Assembly: GCA_977017645.1 (NCBI GenBank)
Contig: OZ360222.1
Location: 248,186,001 to 248,250,000 of the forward strand
Direction of reading: 5' to 3'
DNA from: Torpedo marmorata
Taxonomy: Eukaryota
DNA length: 64,000 nucleotides
Part shown: positions 47,447 through 62,680 of the stretch, one piece after another
Numbering within the stretch: the stretch's first letter is position 1
Layout: every line of letters begins with the position of its first letter
The notes under the pieces: model-generated
Seen by the model: only the letters and a program-made list of their open reading frames with translations
Told to the model about the DNA's origin: nothing
The model's database searches: none
Made by a program: the position numbers and the translations under genes

Positions 47447-50400
47447 TCAACCAGTAAACCTCAAATCCTCCTCAGATAAAATAGATACAGTTTTTCTTTT
47501 GAATTTAACACAAGGCACTTCTTCAGCACGTCGTTTCACTTTATTCCTTTCTTCAGTATTCCACTTCTCATGTGAAGAATTTAAACTCTTAGAATTAGAA
47601 TTTGAATATTTATCTGATTCTCTCGACCTTAAACAGGTCTGTTTAACCACTCTGGTTTCTATGGCTCTTTCCTGTAATTCTAAATCCAATTTCGCAACTT
47701 TCAATTCAGTCTCAGCTCCTTCCGAGAAATTAATAATTTGATCTGAAGTCAAAATATCATGCGATACATTGATAATTCCATTGTCAATCCTGTTGCGGCA
47801 TACTTGAAATTTTTTAATTTCTTCATCTTGCTTGTTACATTTCTGCAATGCAATCTCACATTCTTTCTGCATTGTTAATTGTTGAACATTCAATTTACAT
47901 TCTTGATTGGTTTTAAAAGTCAACTGTTTTGTGTTATTAACCAATAACTTGATCTCTTTCAAAACATTAATCTCTTCCTCCAACCTTTTACATTTTGATA
48001 ATGCTGAATCTCTTTCCTCAATAACTGTATTCATTTCTTCAGCAGTTATTCTTTTCTTCCGCTTTCTGACTTTGCGAGTTTTACTTACAATTAAATCTTT
48101 CTGTTTACTGTTTTCTTGCTTATTTAATATTTCCAATTCTCCTTTCAACATTTTGTTCTCTGAATCATTATTCTTTACTCCATCAGCACAATTTTCTGTG
48201 TTTTCCATTTTTACATCACATTGCAATAATTCTTCATTAGCTTTGTCTATTGTAATCTCTGAACTACAAAATCTACATTCAGATTTGTTTTCAGTCACTT
48301 GTTTTATTCCTGTATTTGATTCAATTACACATGAATGATCAACAGTATTATTTGCAACATCTTCTAATACTTCACTTTCATCCATTTCTGACGAAATTAA
48401 TTTCTTTAATGTTGTTTTAAATACCACTGATTTATTTTCACATTGATCTGTTTTCTTTTCTTCATAAGTGATTTTCTTATTCACGGTTTTTTGCTCTTCT
48501 CTTAACTCTTCAAATTTCTCAACTGAAATTTTATTAACATTTATCGCTACCTGTTCCTGAGCAATATCATTATTTCTTTCCATTGGTCCATTGATTGCCC
48601 AACCAAGCATGGTTCTAATAGCGTAAGGTCCATTCCTTTTACTTTCTATTACTTCTTTTGGTACCAAAACCTTTGGCACATCTGAACCAATCAGCATTTC
48701 TATCTCAGAATTAATTTCAGGTAAATAAACCTTCCACAGATAAGCTAAATGATGGATATCACTTTGATGAGGAATATTTCCTTCGTTCACAGGCATAGTC
48801 TTCTGAGTATATACACTTGGAAGATCACAAAATTTTTTGTCATCCAATCCAGCAACCTCTAAGCCTGAAACAATGTTAGTTTCAACAACCTTTTCTTGTC
48901 CCATTGTTTTTAACATAATTCTTGATTTTCTTCCTTGAATATTAAGTTTATTCATTAGTCCTTCCGTGCAAAAAGATGCAGTGCTACCTGGGTCTAGAAA
49001 TGCATATGTTTTTACTATTGCATCCCCTTTCTTGGCCTTAACTTGTACAGGCACTATTGAAAGTTTGCAGTTATTCACCCCGGCCCCAGTAAGACCACTT
49101 GTCTGAACCGAGGTTATAACATTATTTTCTTTTGTTTCCTTTGTTTCTGTTTGCTCCTTTTCCAATTCCTTGTTTCTGTTACGGACATGCAAAATTCTAG
49201 GATGTTTAAAATTGCATATGTCACAATTAATTTGCTTCTCGCAGTTTTTACTGATGTGCCCTTTACACAGACAGCTAAAACATATTCCATTTTCCTTTAA
49301 GAAAGTGATCCTTTCTTTATGTTCCTTCCTTTCCAATTGTAAACACATTTCCAAAGCATGTCCACCTTTACAGAACAAACAACTCTTTTCATTAGGCAAA
49401 CTTTCCTTTTCCTTATTTATTTTGTCCTTTTCTTTACTTATAACTTGCACATTAGTAGCAAAAGTACTCCTTTTCACCTTCGGACTAGACTGTGAATTAG
49501 ACTTTCTTACATCTTTGCCCATTGAATTATCTCTGGTATTTCCATATAGTGGATCTGTTTCAACGTACACCCGTCGTTCAAGAAAATTTACCAAATCCTT
49601 TAAGGTAGTTTTTCGACCGTAATCTACTTGTAAATTACAAGCCAAATCTCTCCATCTATCCCATAACTTGTAAGGTAATTTTTCTAAGATAATTCGCATA
49701 TTACTATGCACTTCAAGCTCACGAATACCATCGATTTCTTCCATAGCATTACAACATCCTCTTAAAAACAAAGTATATTCTTGCAAAGCCTTTACATCAT
49801 TTTGTTTTATTGATGTCCATTTAAGAGCTTTATCCATATAAGCTAAAGCAATTCGATGTTTGTTGCCAAAATATTGTTCCAATAAATCCTTAGCTTTATC
49901 TAATCCTCTTCCTGAAGACATTTGATTACAACTTTTAACCAGTTCCTTTGGATGTCCCTTTGTGAACATTTCCAAATAATAAAGACATTCATCTCGATCT
50001 TGGCATTTATCTTCAATATTGCGTTTGAAAGATCTCATAAACGATTGATATTGAAGTGGATCACCATCAAAAGTTTGTATCTCTTTCTTGGGTAAAGAAG
50101 AGAGAGACTGTAACTGAAACAATGATGCAGCAATTTCATTTTGTCTTTCCTTGGATGACAATACATTGCTCTGTTCACCGTCTCTTGTTGTATGCAATGT
50201 ATCTGGAAACCTTACTGGTGTAGTTTCTTCCATATTTCTGATGCTTGGCTCATATAACAAAGAAGCTGCTTCGTTCGACCGTACCCAATCCGCAGCTTTG
50301 CTTTCAGATGTTATTATTGGTACATGTGACTTGATACCAATATGCTCTTGAAAGGTTTGTCCTTGTATACGTAAGTTTTGTATCCTTGGTTCTAAAATAT

Positions 50401-51388
50401 CTATCCTTTTGGTTGGTTTCTTTTCCTGTGACTCCTTTTTTGAATATGACCTTTTATTATCAGACAATTTAGATAATTTACTGCTAGCACCAGATACCAT
50501 TGAACCTTCTATTGCTTTCTTTTCTGCCTTGGCAATAGCAATGTTTGCTTCCAGCTCCTGCAGTTCTTTTCTCTGTCTTAGCTGCTCCTTCTCTTGTCTT
50601 AGCTGCTCCTTTAGCTGCTTCTCATTTTGTCTTAGCTGCTCCTTTAGCTGCTCCTCATTTTGTCTTAGCTGCTCCTCCTCTTGTCTTAGCTGCTCCTTCT
50701 TTTGTCTTAGCTGCTCCTTTAGCTGCTTCTCATTTTGTCTTAGCTGCTCCTTTAGCTGCTCCTCATTTTGTCTTAGCTGCTCCTCCTCTTGTTCTAATAT
50801 AAATTTATCCTTAAGCGTTTTTTGTTGTGCAAGAAGAGCGGCCAATTTAACATCAACCTTTGTACGTGACGATGCAGAACTTGAAGTACGAGAAACTCTG
50901 GAGCTTGAACCAGAACTTCTTTTGCTTCTCCTGCTTTCAGCATTTGAGACACTGTCACTTGCTTGTATTTCGTCCTGCAGTTCATATGTTGTCTTCATAC
51001 TTACCTCTTTATCCAATTCGAATTGTATATCCTTTGCATCTTCAACCAATTCAATTTCTTCCTCATTTGGTGACACAATTTCAGCCATTTCCAAGTTATC
51101 TTCTTGTTCAAATAATGAAGCTGCCTCTTCATCCTTTGCCTGCTTCAATCTTTCAATAAGAACCTTTTTATTTCCACTTATGTCCCTTTTCAGTCGCTTC
51201 AATTCTTCTTTAATATCCGCAACCTTCATGTCTTCAATACGTTGGTCCTCAACAGCAACATCAGCGGTTGCTGCGTCAGCTGCTGATAAATCAGTAGCTG
51301 CTGTATCAGTGGCTGCTGCGGCCATTTTACTCGTCTTGTTCCTCTTTCCTTCAAGCATACACAACACTAGCCAAACAACAGTCCCCAA
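47447..51388 (-). CDS. BEL SAP-Gag-protease fused to a MIPOL1-like coiled coil; no RT, RNaseH or integrase core
   Basis: SAP motif MKVADIKEELKRLKRDISGNKKVLIERL; Gag LPKKEIQTFDGDPLQY; three Cys-His knuckles; protease AFLDPGSTASF and GPYAIRTMLGWAINGP; likely start is the ATG at 51325. Confidence 0.9.
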   Translation of the reverse strand: MGTVVWLVLCMLEGKRNKTSKMAAAATDTAATDLSAADAATADVAVEDQRIEDMKVADIKEELKRLKRDISGNKKVLIERLKQAKDEEAASLFEQEDNLEMAEIVSPNEEEIELVEDAKDIQFELDKEVSMKTTYELQDEIQASDSVSNAESRRSKRSSGSSSRVSRTSSSASSRTKVDVKLAALLAQQKTLKDKFILEQEEEQLRQNEEQLKEQLRQNEKQLKEQLRQKKEQLRQEEEQLRQNEEQLKEQLRQNEKQLKEQLRQEKEQLRQRKELQELEANIAIAKAEKKAIEGSMVSGASSKLSKLSDNKRSYSKKESQEKKPTKRIDILEPRIQNLRIQGQTFQEHIGIKSHVPIITSESKAADWVRSNEAASLLYEPSIRNMEETTPVRFPDTLHTTRDGEQSNVLSSKERQNEIAASLFQLQSLSSLPKKEIQTFDGDPLQYQSFMRSFKRNIEDKCQDRDECLYYLEMFTKGHPKELVKSCNQMSSGRGLDKAKDLLEQYFGNKHRIALAYMDKALKWTSIKQNDVKALQEYTLFLRGCCNAMEEIDGIRELEVHSNMRIILEKLPYKLWDRWRDLACNLQVDYGRKTTLKDLVNFLERRVYVETDPLYGNTRDNSMGKDVRKSNSQSSPKVKRSTFATNVQVISKEKDKINKEKESLPNEKSCLFCKGGHALEMCLQLERKEHKERITFLKENGICFSCLCKGHISKNCEKQINCDICNFKHPRILHVRNRNKELEKEQTETKETKENNVITSVQTSGLTGAGVNNCKLSIVPVQVKAKKGDAIVKTYAFLDPGSTASFCTEGLMNKLNIQGRKSRIMLKTMGQEKVVETNIVSGLEVAGLDDKKFCDLPSVYTQKTMPVNEGNIPHQSDIHHLAYLWKVYLPEINSEIEMLIGSDVPKVLVPKEVIESKRNGPYAIRTMLGWAINGPMERNNDIAQEQVAINVNKISVEKFEELREEQKTVNKKITYEEKKTDQCENKSVVFKTTLKKLISSEMDESEVLEDVANNTVDHSCVIESNTGIKQVTENKSECRFCSSEITIDKANEELLQCDVKMENTENCADGVKNNDSENKMLKGELEILNKQENSKQKDLIVSKTRKVRKRKKRITAEEMNTVIEERDSALSKCKRLEEEINVLKEIKLLVNNTKQLTFKTNQECKLNVQQLTMQKECEIALQKCNKQDEEIKKFQVCRNRIDNGIINVSHDILTSDQIINFSEGAETELKVAKLDLELQERAIETRVVKQTCLRSRESDKYSNSNSKSLNSSHEKWNTEERNKVKRRAEEVPCVKFKRKTVSILSEEDLRFTG
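47640..48090 (-). other. MIPOL1: Captured host-gene fragment resembling MIPOL1
   Basis: RITAEEMNTVIEERDSALSKCKRLEEEI..NNTKQLT..NQE matches recalled MIPOL1 RITAEEMSALIEERDAALSKCKRLEQEL..NNMRHLT..NNQE; recognised from memory, not searched. Confidence 0.7.
50570..50790 (-). repeat. Coding tandem repeat (EQLRQ/EQLK units, 108-bp higher-order duplication) in BEL Gag
   Basis: Repeated TTGTCTTAGCTGCTCC units. Confidence 0.9.
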
Positions 51389-53469
51389 TGGACCAGCGGC
51401 AGCAATTCCAATCTGTGTTCTTACTTGCTAAAGATACACAGAAGGAGTCCACAGACTTATGCCTACCACTTCAAATGACTGTAATGTGCTGCAATCCTTA
51501 AACGAGTTTCAACCACAACATCCGTCACTAATATCACTGATTTTCAAAAAATAGTTTCTCCAACGTATTTATAGGACACTTTATTATAAGATTTGAAGCT
51601 TTAAATCACTCTCTGGCTGTTATTCATGGCAGATGGATGTAGATTACAAACTGCCCCCAACTCGAGGCATCTCCAAAATGGCCACCAATTTATATCAGCC
51701 CAAAGCACAGAGAGTTTTTTCTATCTTCTTTCCTTCAAACTTCTGTTCCAAACAGCCAGCCCTTTATTGACTATAAGTAACGGTGACTTCGCTCCACCAA
51801 TAGTCACCTGGAGGCTAAGTGTGGTCCTTGCTTTTGACGCGTTTTATTTAATTTACTGACAAAGTCCAATATGTTCAAAAACCTTTATTTTCACACATGA
51901 CTTGCAGTAATCTTCAATGACTTTAATATAAACAGTTCTTGTAAACGATGTATGATAAGTTCCTTTAAATTATTCCTTAAACAATTCCAAAACGATATGA
52001 AACACTGTAGATGATGTTAAAGTTATAGAAACATTATAAAACGGTATAAAACGGTCAATAAAGATGTGGAGACCAGACTCACCCCCATACATCTCTATCC
52101 TTTCTTTGTTCTCTCTCTCTAATGGTTCTGCGCATGCTCCAACGCGCATACTACAATTCCCAGCCTCCCACGCGCACTATGACGTCACTCTATACTGCGC
52201 ATGCGCCCGTCGGCACTCCCGCGCATGCGCATATCAAAGAACGGGCCGACGACGGCCCACAGAACAACGCAAGCGCTCCAAGGCCCGACGTGGCCTCGGA
52301 GCGCGCTGAGGACGGCCCAGTGAACAACGCGAGCGCTCAATGGCCCGACGTGGCCCAGGAGCGCTCCGAGGACGGCCCACCGAACCACGCGAGCGCTCCA
52401 AGGCCCGACGAGACATCGGAGCGCCGCAACAACGGTAAGTTAACGAGCCTACGGCTCTTACACCCTCTATTTTTATTTCATTCATGTGCCTGTCTAAGAG
52501 TCTCTTAAATGCCCCTAATGTTTCAGCCTCCACCACCGTCCCAGGCAAGGAATTCCAGGCACCCACAACTCTCTGTGTAAAAAACTTACCCCTGATGTCT
52601 CCCCTAAACTTCCCTCCTTAACTTTGTACAGATGTCCTCTGGTGTTTGCTATTCCTGCCCTGGGAATCGGCTTCCTTTTTTCCTCTTTATTGCATTTTCG
52701 ATATCTGTAGACATGCAGGGTTTCCTGCACCTGTAAGCCTGAACTTTCGCCCATATTGCAACATGTTGGCCCTGAACACTTATTATTTCTCCTTTCAGTG
52801 CTTCCCACTGTACAGATGCAGATTCAGCTACAATAGATGCTACCAGTCTACCTTTTCACCAGGTTCTGTCTTATTTAATGAAATTGGCCTTCCCCCAACT
52901 TGTCCTTTAATCCTGGTCTATGCTGATTTTGTTTTCCATATCCACTTTGAAATATATGGAGTTTTGGTCACGAGCTCCCCCGCTGACACTCCTTTTACCT
53001 GACCAGATTTTAGTTCCTAAAACAAGCTCAATCAAAAAGCCCTCTTGGATATACTTCAAAAACCCACCCCACTGAGCCCTTTATGTCAAGGTAGTCCCAG
53101 TTAACATGGAAACACCCCCCCTGTCCCCCAACTACAATAACCCTATTTTTTATCACATTGCTCTTCTATTTGACTGTACATCTGCTACTCTATCTCCTGT
53201 TGGCTGTTAGGAGGTGCATCATATACCCCCGGCAAAGTGGTGACACCCTAATCTCTACCCATATGACCTCATTTGAGGAGCCTTTGGAATATCCTCCTTC
53301 AATACTGGTGATGCAACCTTAGACTAACAATGCAATGCCATTTCCTGTTTTACACCCCTGTGTTTCATCTGACATTTCTGTATCCAGGATACTGAGTAGC
53401 CAGTCCTGCCTGTCTCAGTGATGGCAACAGTATTGTAGTTACCCATGTTCATTAAAGCTTTGAGCTCAC

Positions 53470-54229
53470 TGTTGTGTTGAGAAGAGTATCAGGTTTGGTG
53501 AGTTCACCGAGAGACGAGTCTGGACACAAGTGTTACAATCACACATAACTTTTATTAACACACGGGAAACAAACAGGGGAGAACGTTAAATGGTACACTA
53601 TTGCTAATTCACGTAAGCGACGATATAGACATTCACCTTGGACATCAGTTGGACTCCGACAACGGTAAACCTATATTCAACCCAATTCACACACTACACA
53701 CACTGTTTCACTTGAGCGACGATATAGACGTTGACCTCGGACATCAGTTGGACTCCGACAACGGTAAACCTATATTCGACCCTGCTCACATACTATAAAC
53801 AGGGACTCTTACACACGCTCCCGGTTCCCTGATCAATGGAGATGTGGCTCCACTGCAAATATTGATCTATCGCAATACTACGGCTCAGCTTCAGTGTAGT
53901 GAACACCTTACCCGCGACCCTTCCAGCGACGTCCACAGTAGCGACCTGGCATGGAGTGGTGTCCGGGGCTTGGACAACGAGGCAGAGAGAGAGAATGTGC
54001 TGTGGGTTGGTATTATATACAGTGCTAATCTGTGCTTCTAGCCAATAATGACCCTAGGTGATTTAAAGTAGCCAACGGCAAGATGTGCACTAATGGGCGG
54101 CCGGAGTCCAACCTTGATTGACAGGTGATGTGACTTCCGAATAAGTTCCAGATGGGGAGGACACGTGACCACCCGCAATCCACAATATTCCAGACAGGCA
54201 GGGAGGCCACGTTTCCTCCACACACAACA
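53470..54229 (-). mobile_element. Retroviral-type LTR (3' LTR of an ERV-like element) with an internal ~100-bp tandem duplication
   Basis: Inverted ends TGTTGTGT..ACACAACA; preceded on the minus strand by PPT GAGGGGTGGAA; AATAAA on the minus strand near 53555; duplicated block at ~53617 and ~53717. Confidence 0.75.
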
Positions 54230-55463
54230 TTCCACCCCTCGGAAGCCACATCACTCTGCAATCACTATGATGACAATCAATAACTCTATGTACATGTTAT
54301 AATTATTAAAAAAAAAGAAAAGAGAAAAAAAACCCAAAAAGACGTGTTAAAAAAAAGATATCAATCAAGCGGATCAATATGTACACAAGTGTCTTCCATA
54401 TGCTGGACAAGGCACATAATCAAATTCAATGACAACGCCTCACCAGCTCTGCCCCCCCCCCCCCGACCAAACAGGGTCGCTTTGTGCTGTTGGAGCAGGG
54501 TGCTGTGGGAGCTTCTCCGCAGTGTCAGAGAGGAGGGTAGAGAAAGAAATTTGTCTGGTCACCGACTCGCCTGCCTGGTTTCTCCGGCTTGGCTGGCAAA
54601 TGTGAGCACCCTTACCACCAACGTCTGCGAGCAGGTGCTATCCTGTGCCTTGGCCTCACGCTTGTGCGCTCCCTAAGCACAGCCCCCAGGTGGCCGTCGC
54701 CGTTCTATCCCGTGGTGAGTCAGGGGGCAGGCCGGCAGGCATACATCCAGGGTGTACCCGGGGCGTCCCGTTTTCCTGGGCTGTCGTCTGACACCAGGGT
54801 GCCATTCCTGCTCGTGTTCTCTATAAACGGGTGCCACAAGTGCCTGTGTTGGATCCCTGTAACAATAGCCAGGAGGAGTCGGGACTAAAAGTTAGCCAAT
54901 TTACTGATTTTAAGTAAAAGCTCCCGAAGCCCCCACCCCATGAGGTATTTGTTTCTGTTAATGGGAGTTCTGGGTCGATGCTGTCATTGTCAAGTGAAAC
55001 AAAATATATACAACGTTTCTTACTATTGTTTGATCAATGACACTCTACTTATAAGCTGTGACTTTGAATCTGACCCTACTTATAAATTGTAACTGAATAC
55101 CTAGATTGTGCTTGGTAAAGTCATCATTAGTACAGCTCAGGGTGATTAAAAAGGAGAAAGACAACACAAAAGGTCCATTACAAAGTCTGCACCTGTAATG
55201 TGAATCACAATAGATGCAATTGAATGTCCAATGCTGAGGTTTAGGTTTCCATGGCAACAGCTCTTGCCCATGAGAATTCTTTGCATAATAAGTGACAAAA
55301 GTTCCTGCAGGTAAAACGAGTTGATGGCTGGGATCAGTGATGAGATCGCAGCAGTCTGTTTTGATGAGCATTTTGTAGACCTTCACGTCGAGAAGAGGAA
55401 CAGCTTGAAGGGTGGTCTTCTCCTGTGGGGGGGAGGGGTGTTTGGGAGAGCTCAAACGATAGA

Positions 55464-56396
55464 TTAGTCAGGGGCCACCTCCGGTGGAGGAGGACCAGAG
55501 GGGAGGCTGGTCCAGGACGGAGTGGGCAGCACATGGGAAGCTCCACATCTACGGAGCTTCCCCCCGCAATGCTCTCTCCAGAGAGCACACATGTCTCTGT
55601 GAGACACCGGCAGGGTGACGTCGCTGAACTTCCCCTCAGTCCTGAAAACTCGAGCGGGAGCTCTCCGCTCCGTGTGCTCCGATCCCTCCAGGAGGGTAAT
55701 GGCTTCCCGGACCGCCATCCCGGTTGCCAGACCCATGAGGGGCAAGACCACCCCTCTATGGCCAGGGCATGCGGCGGTGACTAAATAGCCCACCAAGGCA
55801 CCAGTCACCTTTGTGCCCCCTGGGAGGTGGTGCTCATGGGTGCCCCTATAGATACCCAGGATCAGTGCCAACTCCCTAACAATCCGTGTCCCCACGCCAA
55901 TGGTGTGCCACTCTTGGAGGGCAGGGAACCTGGCCTGGACCGCAGTCGCCACCCGTTCCCACAGGGTGGTGCCATCATCGACCCCTTCTGGCGGCGCCCG
56001 CAAGGTGTTGTCAATCGTCTGCTGGTCAGATAGACCGCCCAGGACGCTCGCTTCCCAATAAGAGAGAAGGGAATAGGGGGCCCCCTTGTCTCCCAACTGA
56101 AGCAGCGGCATGGCTAAGTGTTCACCTGGCCGCTGGTGGTATCGGTCCCCTCGCCCAGTTAGCCCCTTAGCAGAGTAGTCCTGGGACTCCATTATCTCAC
56201 AGTGACCACCTATGTACCCACCCGAGGTCCCTCCGTTTTTGGCTAACTCCCCATTTTGGAGAGTCGGCGGGGTGCCCTCGTTGCAGACCTGGGACCGCGT
56301 GGTCACTGCTCGGGCTTGTAAAGGCTCGGGGACGCAGGGAGGAGGAAGTGTGTCGTGTGACTCAGTTTCCTCATGGTTATCACCATCCATCCACAC
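55464..56396 (-). pseudogene. Degenerate Gag resembling class III (ERV-L/ERV-S) endogenous retroviruses
   Basis: TLWERVATAVQARFP and VSHRDMCALWREH resemble ERV-L-type Gag blocks; lies between a Ser-PBS and a PPT/LTR. Confidence 0.5.
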
Positions 56397-56418
56397 ATAC
56401 CCACCCCCCCCCCCCCAC

Positions 56419-57234
56419 CAGGGCTGGATTTACCTAGTAGCAAAAGTAGCACATGCTACGGGCCCGGCATTTCCAAGGGTTCCGCGCTAAATGCTTGCAA
56501 GCTATTAATTCAAGTACGAGGACATGCTGCGCTTCGCTGTGGCCCAGTCTGATGCGGCCCGCCAGATGGGCGACCCGGATCGCGTCACCGAGGCTAACCT
56601 CAACCTGGCGCGGGGCCAGGAGAAGCTGTGCAAGTTCTCTGAGTCCGTGGCCTACTGCAGGACGTGCCTCGGCGCCGAAGGCGGCCCTCTGCGCCTGCAG
56701 TTCAACGGGCAGGTCTACTTCAGCATGGGCAACACCTACCTCGGCCTCAGCGCCTTACAGAAGGCGCTCGAGTGCTTTGAGAAGGCGCTGCGCTAAGCGC
56801 ACGGCAACAACGACAAGATGCTGGAATGCCGCGTGTGCTGCAACCTGGGCGCCTTCTACGTGCAGCTGAAGGACTACGAGAAGGCGCTCTTCTTCCCCTG
56901 TAAAGGCGCTGAGCTGGTCGCCGACTACAGCAGGGGCTGGAGCCTCAAGTACAAGGCCATGAGCCGCTACCACATGGCTATCACACTGGGACGCCGGGTC
57001 AGTGGGGTGGGGTGGGGGTGACATAGGGTGGCCATTTCAAACTTACCAAAACGGAGGACATGCAGGGTCAGCGTCACAAACTCGCTCGGGGTGGGGGTCA
57101 CTGCCGTCACACTTCCCCCTCACTGCGCATGCGCCAGTTGGCACTATTTAGGACCTTGCATGCTCCAGCCGGCACAATTTAAGGCCCCTTTATAACATAT
57201 GCTACAGACCCCGCACTAGCTTAATCCGGCCCTA
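56419..57234. mobile_element. hAT (Tip100-like) non-autonomous element carrying a RAPSN fragment
   Basis: TIRs CAGGGCTGGATT / AATCCGGCCCT(A); subterminal repeats CACATGCTACGGGCCC / CATATGCTACAGACCC; TSD degenerate (C-rich). Confidence 0.65.
56512..56979 (+). pseudogene. RAPSN: Rapsyn (43-kDa receptor-associated protein of the synapse) gene fragment with an in-frame stop
   Basis: [67 protein letters not shown] corresponds to rapsyn TPR region (~aa 58-213); TAA at 56794 in place of Tyr; no 5' or 3' remainder. Confidence 0.93.
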
Positions 57235-57374
57235 ATCCCCCCACCACGTGTCGATCCCCTCCCCCTGCTGGACAATGGCTCGGGCTTTTCCTGAGTCAAG
57301 CTGCCAGCTAGACTAGCGAGCTGCTTGCAGCTGTTGTGTTTCAATCAGCTTGGAAGCTGCCTCCAAGATTTTAA

Positions 57375-57920
57375 ATTCTTTTTTTTTCAATCTTTTTTAT
57401 TGATTTTTATAAGAAATACAATACAATGAAGAAAAGGGAATGAAACTGAAAATACAATATCACATATGTATATATATTAAAATAAAACTTCAAACAGTAT
57501 AAATTCAATCCCCCCTGGTGACAATGAAAAAAACCCATCAAAAGTATTATATATATATTTTAAAAAAACACCTAACCTACTCTAATAAAAAAACAACTAA
57601 CAAAAACAGCTGAGCAGCTTATCCTGAAGGTTATATATATTTTGTAATTTTTGGTTCCTACCGTAAATCAAAAAACAAAGGAAGAGTAAATACATCTAAT
57701 CACATTAGAAACACTTACATCATATGAAAATAAGACATAAAAGGTCGTCATGTATCTTCAAATTTCACCGATGAATCAAATACATGATATCTAATTTTTT
57801 CTAAGCTTAAACAAGACATAATATGAGAAAACCATTGAAACACTGTTGGACGTCTAGAGTCTTTCCATTTGAATAGGATGGCTCTTCTAGCCAACAATGT
57901 AGAGAAGGCCACAACCCGAT
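57375..57920 (-). mobile_element. L1-clade LINE 3' end
   Basis: T-run at ~57378; translation LLARRAILFKWKDS..WFSHIMSCLSLEKIRY. Confidence 0.8.
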
Positions 57921-58084
57921 TCCCACACTACTTCACCGGCTTCCTCCAGCTTCCTTGTTCCCGCCATGGCCATATCTTACTGTGTCTGCAATTCCGCCTC
58001 CCCGAACCTATGTCTCAAAATAAAGTTGGTTAGTTAGTCGATTTCCCAGACACCCCAATACCCGTTTTCCAACGTCAAACTCCT

Positions 58085-60711: not shown

Positions 60712-62680
60712 CAGAATCAGAATCAGAATTTATTGTCATGAACAAGTCATGAAATTCGGTGTTTTGCGGCAGCATCATAGTGCAATTAACATTCATATTA
60801 ACCATCTAACGACATTACTATAAAAAAATCATAAACAATAGTGCACGAAAAGTAAGGCAGTGTCTTTGGTTCATTGATTATTCAGGAATCTGATGGCAGC
60901 GGGGAAGAAGCTGACCTTGTGCCATTGAGTGCTCGTCTTTAGGCTCCTGTATCTTTTTCCTGATGGAAGCAGAGTGAAGAGGGCATGGCCTGAGTTGTGG
61001 GGGTCTTTGAGGATAGAGGCTGCTTTTTTAAGACACCGCCTCATGTAGATGTCCTTGATGGAGTGAAGTTTGGTGCCTGTGATGTCACAGGCCGAGTTAA
61101 CAACCTTCTGGAGTTTACTCTTGTCCTGGGAGTTGGCACCTCCATACCAGGCAGTGATGCAACCAGCCAGAATGCTCTCCATGGTACACCTGTAGAAGTT
61201 TACGAGAGTCTTTGGTGACATACCGAATCTCCGCAGACACCTCATAAAGTATAGCCGCTGACGAGCCTTCTTTGTGATTGCATCAACGTGGATGCTCCAG
61301 GACAGATCCTCGGAGATGTTGACACCCAGGAATATGAAGTTCTTGACCCTCTCCTCTACTGAGCCCTCGATGAGGACTGGGTCGTGTTCCCCTGACTTCC
61401 TCCTGAAGTCCACAATCATCTCCTTGGTTTTGCTGACGTTGAGCTCAAGGTTGTTGCCATTACACCATTCAACGAGCTGATCTATCTCCCTCCAGTACGC
61501 TTCCTCATTGCCGTTTGTGATTCTGCCGACAACTGTGGTATCATCGGCAAACTTGTAGATGGCATTGGAATTGTGCCTGGCCACACAGTCATGGGTGTAT
61601 AATGAGTAGAGCAGTGGACTAAGCACGCATCCTTGGGGTGCGCCTGTGTTGATAATCAGTGAGGAGGAGACGTTGTTTCCAATTCGTACTGACTGTGGTC
61701 TTCCGATGAGAAAGTCAAGGATCCAATTGCAGAGGGGGGTACAGAGGCCTAGAGTTTGTAGCTTCTTGACCAGCACTGAGGGAATAATGGTATTGAAGGC
61801 CGAGCTGTATTCGATGAAGAGCAACCGTATGTATGAATTGCTGTTTTTGAGGTGATCCAGAGCTGAGTGGAGAGCCAGCGATATTGCATCTGCTGTGGAG
61901 CGATTGTGGCAATAGGCGAATTGCAGTGGGTCCAGATCTTTGCTTAGGTATGTGTTAATTCTGGCCATGACCAGCCTCTCAAAGCATTTCATCACAGTAG
62001 AAGTTAGTGCAACTGGGCGGTAGTCGTTGAGGCAGCCCACACTACTCTTCTTGGGTACCGGGATGATTGATGCCCTTTTGAAGCAGGTGGGAACCTCTGA
62101 CTGCCGCAATGAGAGGTTGAAAATGTCCGTGAACACTCCGGCTAGTTGGTTGGCACAGATTTTCAATACCCTGCCAGGTACGCCGTCAGGGCCTGACACC
62201 TTGCGAGGGTTCACCCTCTTGAATGATGTTCTGACGTCGCCCTCAGAGACAGATATCACAGGGTCCTCAGCCTTTTCAGGGATTCTAGTTGGCACTGTTT
62301 TGTTCTTCTTCTCAAAGCGGGCATAGAAGGTGTTCAGCTCATTGGCTAGTGAAGCATCACAGCCGTCTATAGTGTTCGCCCTCGCTTTTTAGGCTGTAAT
62401 GGCCTGCACTCCCTGCCATATACTTTCCTTCAGAGATGGCCTTCTGCAGGTCGTGCCTGGACTTTTTGTAAAGATCCCGGTCCCCGGCCTTAAACGCCCT
62501 TGTTCTCGTCCTCAGCAGGTTGCGAATTCTCTGATTCATCCAGGGCTTCTGGTTGGGGAACACCCGGTATTTGCGCGTGGGCACACACTCAAAGGTGTTG
62601 ATGAAGTCAGTGACACCTGTTGCATATTCATTTAGGTCTATGGCTGAGTGCTTGAATATGTTCCAGTCCACCGATTCAAA
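60712..62680 (-). mobile_element. Rex1/Babar LINE, 5'-truncated, RT ORF 60871-62295
   Basis: [54 protein letters not shown]; (ATTCTG)n tail. Confidence 0.94.

Follow-up and report, generated by a model that had tools for sequence, protein, structure and literature searches.

The transposon unit and its surroundings

The window, a stretch of 64,000 nucleotides of Torpedo marmorata DNA, carries at 56419-57234 a transposon unit of 816 bp, whose two ends are found again in most of 29 further loci examined alongside it. Its left arm (56419..56511, + strand), which is also present in RAPSN-free and transposase-bearing relatives, opens with a terminal inverted repeat (TIR) of 14 bp (56419..56432, +); the final C of the arm is common to arm and cargo. 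The cargo (56511..56978, +) is a 468-bp piece of RAPSN exon 1 (c.171-638, the TPR region) without start codon and with a stop at 56794-56796, which corresponds to codon 152. A junction filler follows (56979..56985, +), in which seven bases from 11 bases upstream are copied again (TACCACA in the family form) and whose final ACA is shared with the next segment: a remnant of RAPSN intron 1 in the form of one GC-rich minisatellite unit (56983..57023, +; 94% over 36 bp to C50:86650768-86650803). The segment at 57024..57175 (+) comprises the truncated end and subterminal repeats of a nested hAT-like MITE (TAGGGTGGCCA); 57024-57143 are 83% identical to a complete 335-bp element in locus L026, and 57144-57175 were assigned by eye. 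The right arm (57176..57234, +) is the last 59 bp of the 135-bp arm of the family and contains the right TIR (57221-57234), with its terminal G changed to A. The TIR family form is CAG(G/T)GCCGGATTAA, from which the window copy departs at both ends. The earlier note on this DNA had described a 468-bp RAPSN piece with one premature stop between hAT-like bounds, and its coordinates are exact. It had also pointed to a further hAT-like end near 57024; this end is real, but it belongs to the separate nested MITE and not to the unit that packages RAPSN.

On the right, the unit is followed by the target site duplication (TSD) ATCCCCCC (57235..57242, +), which agrees with empty sites in the host repeat. 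On the left, the TSD is degraded within an expanded C-run of the host element (56403..56418, +), where empty sites read CATACCCATCCCCCCACCACG. Across the family, the two TSDs match in at least 6 of 8 positions in 25 of the 26 copies with both ends, as opposed to 2 of 650 mismatched pairs; the sole failure is the window copy itself (5/8), with its left TSD in the altered C-run and the right one intact. A second set with both ends yields a match of at least 6/8 in 13 of 16 copies, counted by eye. In empty copies of the host repeat the flanks overlap by 7-11 bases in 7/7 cases. The flanks thus form one hAT-type element, as had been claimed, with shared ends and 8-bp TSDs. A partner with matching ends and hAT transposase remains exists in the genome: L107 combines both family ends with a Dimer_Tnp_hAT domain (Pfam, E 1.8e-10), and 146 protein matches to related transposase are found. 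With its 14-bp TIRs, 8-bp TSDs and this partner, the window unit is a non-autonomous hAT transposon. To judge by the likeness of its TIRs, the family may belong to the Tip100 subgroup.

The unit interrupts the internal region of an LTR element (53470..57379, - strand), of which one LTR is preserved at 53470-54229 (TG..CA, 760 bp) and which ends after 57379. The host is high-copy (best 40 of 3115 candidates scored), and its relatives have paired 760-bp TG..CA direct repeats. Together with the empty sites, these repeats bear out nesting in an LTR element, where the earlier note had named an ERV. As its open reading frame has neither a Pfam match nor a useful Atlas match (best score 0.85, uninformative), the host is called simply an LTR element on the basis of the paired repeats; it may encode an ERVL-like gag motif. 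Where the host breaks off, an AT-rich, LINE-like 3' end follows (57380-58080), and the window contains no second LTR of the host. Two further frames lie nearby, both on the - strand: a frame of 1,326 aa with a SAP domain and zinc-knuckle-like motifs (47447-51427), which we assume to resemble a BEL/Pao-type gag, and a 505-aa reverse transcriptase frame (RVT_1) of a non-LTR element (60871-62388).

Copies and subfamilies

The cargo is 94.2% identical to chromosomal RAPSN (C50:86645962-86646429) and has a GC content of 67.7%. It yields TPR domain matches in the window, the source exon itself carrying Rapsyn_N; a PDB search with the cargo returns generic TPR proteins alone. When the RAPSN piece was searched for in the ray's own genome (6.2 Gb), 40 matches were scored at the DNA level, the best 40 of 66 candidates; at the protein level, 77 candidates yielded 69 matches. 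Merged, these matches fall at 60 places, spread over 25 contigs. The one match without transposon ends (C50:86645962) is the RAPSN gene itself, which leaves at least 59 copies as a lower bound. The majority of copies start and stop at the coordinates of the window unit, and their TSDs are distinct; the amplification considered in the earlier note has therefore taken place. Because six differences from chromosomal RAPSN are common to 27-30 of 30 copies, the piece appears to go back to a single capture.

Cargo-free versions, which the earlier note had suggested looking for, are present as well: L075 (421 bp, with a perfect TSD), L068, L086, L093 and L094 were found among the best 40 of 981 candidates of a search with the left arm. 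The family also includes deletion copies with transposase remains. Among 30 RAPSN-bearing copies, 11 belong to subfamily A (~1.1 kb), 17 to subfamily B, and two are unclassed. In subfamily A, the exon 1 piece is followed by ~400 bp matching RAPSN intron 1 (C50:86650768-86651164), with gene order and strand kept; this intron piece consists of a minisatellite unit and a 5'-cut CR1-like fragment, the CR1 label being our assumption. Subfamily B, to which the window copy belongs, has the nested MITE end in place of the CR1-like piece, so that of the intron piece the minisatellite unit is left in the window, and it has extra markers. Subfamily C (~2.5 kb, ~20 long matches) encloses new cargo between 23 bp of the exon and the end of the intron piece. 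In subfamily E (~1.1 kb), a 4-base match joins 129 bp of the exon to a GC-rich stretch of ~640 bp from many loci on contig C62. Subfamily D is RAPSN-free and has its own interior in 1.7 kb. A is placed before B on the strength of shared markers; the exon tree has a star-like shape and gives no order for the two.

Several observations accompany the subfamilies. Subfamily D (L082, L080, L096, L120-L129) has matching ends around a 1.5-kb interior with 182 candidates and may represent another host capture; donors of the C and D interiors were not found among the best 40 matches scored. The donor stretch of subfamily E (L181:495-1133 and C62, L189-L196) is a 640-bp GC-rich promoter-like sequence followed by a minisatellite, which occurs at at least 30 places on C62 (3,141 candidates). 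It probably represents the 5' end of a large gene family arranged in tandem; a C2H2 motif was not found near the piece in 4 x 10 kb. One subfamily E copy, L180 (C69:30727400-30729400), contains its left arm-exon junction a second time, as a 104-bp duplicate in inverted orientation. The complete TAGGGTGGCCA MITE (335 bp), which we take to be Blackjack-like, lies inside L026 with an 8-bp duplication of its own, and the same MITE has inserted independently, at two different sites, in the subfamily A copies L026 and L167. In L022 (325-1258), its 52-bp subterminal unit is expanded to a tandem array of ~20 copies.

In public sequencing runs, two further organisms, B and C, have the junctions between arm and exon and between exon and minisatellite as well as those of subfamily E. 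Organism B may be the same species or a close relative. For organism C no contig reaches at least 99% identity, so the element is likely older than the split from this organism. Run X16 gave no cover, and the exon piece was left uncovered by X1 and X9, which is not evidence of absence.

The RAPSN source gene

The chromosomal RAPSN gene starts with an ATG at C50:86645792, from which a frame remains open to codon 230, followed by GT and a GC-rich minisatellite. Codons 1-230 are therewith contained in one exon of 690 bp (C50:86645792-86646481; L002:1331-2020), which matches Rapsyn_N with E 1.3e-29. Five further exons with AG/GT borders bring the gene to six exons and a 412-aa protein, and among 31 candidates it is the only Rapsyn_N match of the genome. 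Third positions of exon 1 are 99% G/C, and the CpG observed/expected ratio in the captured part is 0.93.

In human RAPSN, introns precede c.193 and c.532 and lie at c.912/913 and c.1166/1167, as read from the variant names given in the available parts of two papers (PMC6451864, PMC10494853), the first two positions being supported by c.193-15/IVS1-15 and c.532-2A>G; for mouse Rapsn, the same partly available sources give eight exons. The ray gene keeps the downstream borders c.912/913 and c.1166/1167 and is without the first two human introns, so that the captured c.171-638 lies inside one exon.

The unbroken exon is not confined to this genome. In a public run of organism I, one contig of 3,707 bases spans the exon from end to end, gap-free and with 95 differences, and diverges two bases into the intron; it is the sole contig examined from this run of 2,716 million letters, which is judged to be DNA by size and content only. 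Since organism I shares it, the unbroken exon likely predates the capture. A literature search for intron loss in chondrichthyan or shark rapsyn returned nothing relevant. Family ends are absent from 100 kb around the RAPSN gene, and a founder copy was thus not found.

Origin of the capture

As had been claimed, the window piece reads through both human intron positions, and the earlier note had concluded from this that a spliced mRNA or cDNA was captured. It had also named, beforehand, the absence of these introns from the parental gene as what would speak against this conclusion. The organization of the ray gene and the presence of intron 1 DNA in the family overturn the claim: the source exon is unbroken and had no introns to lose, and intron 1 DNA follows in gene order in the likely older subfamily A, both of which argue for capture at the DNA level.

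Because the CR1-like repeat is abundant (3,337 candidates; the best 40 were scored, and the RAPSN intron copy is not among these) and free copies equal the intron copy by identity, the source of this piece was tested separately. The minisatellite unit in the cargo is the unit of the array that opens RAPSN intron 1. Ranking by plain identity does not point to a particular donor of the CR1-like piece: the intron copy is 81-85% identical to subfamily A and no closer than free copies (85-87%, to L010). The test set comprised 17 A copies, 20 free CR1-like copies and the RAPSN intron copy. The A copies share 16 of 26 diagnostic columns with the intron copy and at most four with any free copy; the other 10 of the 26 are not common to A and the intron copy, and 13 bases differ at the minisatellite-CR1 border. 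The 5' break beside the minisatellite occurs in the A copies and the intron copy and in 0/20 free copies, and the tree places the A copies and the intron copy on one side of a branch at 95/97, with bootstraps that had not yet settled. Diagnostic columns, border and tree together point to RAPSN intron 1 as the donor of the CR1-like piece of subfamily A.

The junctions are short. Left arm and exon share one base (C), and the right junction has one shared T amid looser likeness. At the middle junction, the exon stops at c.638; the 7-base re-copy comes next, and three bases (ACA) are common to it and the minisatellite. This junction exists in a long form (15/25 displayed copies, counted by eye) and a short form with one repeat unit less (10/25), each found in both A and B. 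Possible microhomology thus amounts to one base at the outer junctions, three at the middle one and four in subfamily E. The junctions are compatible with template switching in break repair.

We consider it highly probable that RAPSN DNA was copied once from the chromosomal gene into a non-autonomous hAT element during break repair and that this element has since reached at least 59 sites, probably moved by the family transposase. The element could have arisen as follows: the hAT family with these ends, which exists with and without cargo and in some copies with transposase remains, would have provided the recipient. Starting from a broken left arm, repair synthesis may have changed over to exon 1 of RAPSN and, after 468 bp, slipped back by 11 bases; a 3-base match would then have allowed a jump into intron 1 (4,338 bp further in the present gene), where ~400 bp would have been copied before the return to the right arm. 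The resulting subfamily A (~1.1 kb), now dispersed with distinct 8-bp duplications, would have given rise to B when the nested MITE end displaced the CR1-like piece, and later captures, in an order that we infer, would have overwritten most of the cargo to yield C and E. The cargo itself has gathered changes neutrally, as a passenger.

Within capture from DNA, the copying step may also have proceeded differently: one contiguous RAPSN capture of ~5 kb could have been followed by internal deletion and a small templated insertion, all before amplification. This route is a serious contender, though clearly the less favoured one. In its favour, order and strand are as in the gene and internal deletions are common in the family. 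The 7-base re-copy is compatible with template switching and with a long capture plus deletion alike; however, the skipped 4.3 kb are absent from the copies examined (five were aligned to the whole locus), save for minisatellite units. For unspliced RAPSN pre-mRNA as the repair template, the sense order of the exon and intron pieces could be cited, but no feature requires RNA, and subfamily E acquired its GC-rich piece through a 4-base match with unrelated loci that exist in many copies, in the manner of DNA template switching, which makes such a template very improbable. Spliced mRNA or cDNA, finally, can be virtually dismissed: running through both human intron positions is expected from a source gene without intron inside the piece, the ~400 bp of intron 1 after the exon piece cannot stem from a spliced molecule, and the piece stops 52 bases before the splice donor, with neither exon 2 nor poly-A in 26 displayed copies. 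The element thereby ceases to count as an instance of RNA captured by a DNA transposon.

Decay of the cargo

Copies differ by 3-6% from the column yardstick, about half of this via CpG transitions. A stop or frameshift is found in 20 of 30 copies and neither in 10 (by eye). When changes are compared by mutation class in 28 of the 30 copies, leaving out two close relatives and five subfamily columns, 201 silent, 342 missense and 13 nonsense changes are observed, with 207, 334 and 14 expected (N/S ~1.05). Selection on the cargo had been considered on account of an early non-CpG ratio of 0.62-0.67, and was rejected when the ratio rose to ~1.05 after splitting mutation classes. The cargo decays neutrally; it therefore rides as a passenger.

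That the copies are retained for an activity, be it as peptides or as small RNAs acting on RAPSN, appears remote. The 10 copies whose piece is free of stops and frameshifts would allow for it, and in a run of organism C guessed to be RNA one contig extends across a subfamily E copy at a depth of 11.9, compared to ~1,200 for host-like contigs. However, this run is possibly DNA, the piece has no start codon, later subfamilies drop most of it, and N/S, the level of nonsense changes and the predominance of CpG transitions all point to neutrality. A search of public runs listed no RNA run as carrying the element.

Comparison with known gene-capturing transposons

The ray element falls under the definition of a multicopy Pack-TIR: it has an identifiable parent without flanking transposable element, is not a retrocopy, and occurs with distinct TSDs and in a cargo-free version. 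The available text of Tan et al. 2021 (PMC8277862) reports 370 Pack-TIRs in 100 animal genomes, 281 of them unique, with four multicopy cases among these and none in elephant shark, after intronless retrocopies had been filtered out. A close counterpart of the ray element there is Pack-hAT-N8_XT of Xenopus tropicalis, with three copies of a 291-bp 5' UTR piece (PMC8277862, as far as available). With it and the other animal multicopy Pack-TIRs described in that part of the source, the ray element has in common that it is a non-autonomous hAT enclosing host DNA, that its copies have distinct TSDs and lie far away from their source, that the matches at its junctions are short and that its cargo is GC-rich (67.7% here; four of five multicopy cases lie above background according to the supplement legend of PMC8277862). 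In contrast to Pack-hAT-N8_XT as described there, it has at least 59 copies (~twentyfold more), contains coding exon sequence, took up two pieces from one gene and has exchanged its cargo in successive steps. RAPSN is absent from the supplement text of Tan et al. 2021 (PMC8277862) to the extent that this is available. A literature search for a rapsyn transposon in Torpedo or for transposable elements of electric rays returned nothing specific; subscription papers, Repbase/Dfam and bioRxiv supplements were outside its scope and may list the element.

Plant Pack-MULEs and Pack-TYPE elements including Pack-hAT, according to the accessible parts of PMC5861414 and bioRxiv 2021.06.18.448592, likewise favour GC-rich pieces, combine several loci per element and form large clusters. 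Unlike the Pack-MULEs of these partly available sources, the ray element resides in a vertebrate, has 14-bp TIRs and an 8-bp TSD instead of long MULE TIRs, and carries neutral cargo. With a processed retrocopy it has in common a coding stretch that is intron-free relative to the human gene; it differs in that the source exon itself is unbroken, in the presence of intron DNA, in its TIR bounds and in the lack of poly-A.

We tentatively propose, with a confidence that falls somewhat short of even, that this hAT family acts as a plant-style collector of gene fragments in the vertebrate germ line, repeatedly capturing GC-rich 5' gene ends while transposing, overwriting its cargo and spreading to tens of sites, and that high-copy Pack-TIRs are common and overlooked in ray and shark genomes. 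If so, such elements would not be the rare exception in these animals that has been reported for animals at large. The Pack-MULE and Pack-TIR papers (PMC5861414, PMC8277862), in the parts available, state the link between capture and transposition as open. The ray family is a well-resolved, high-copy Pack-hAT lineage whose donor is known, whose parents without cargo are present and whose cargo swaps can be read in order; it permits this link to be tested by setting capture dates against family activity. Human intron maps are not safe to assume for cartilaginous fish. A minor finding in its own right, on gene structure, is that a more distant organism has the same fused first exon of RAPSN.
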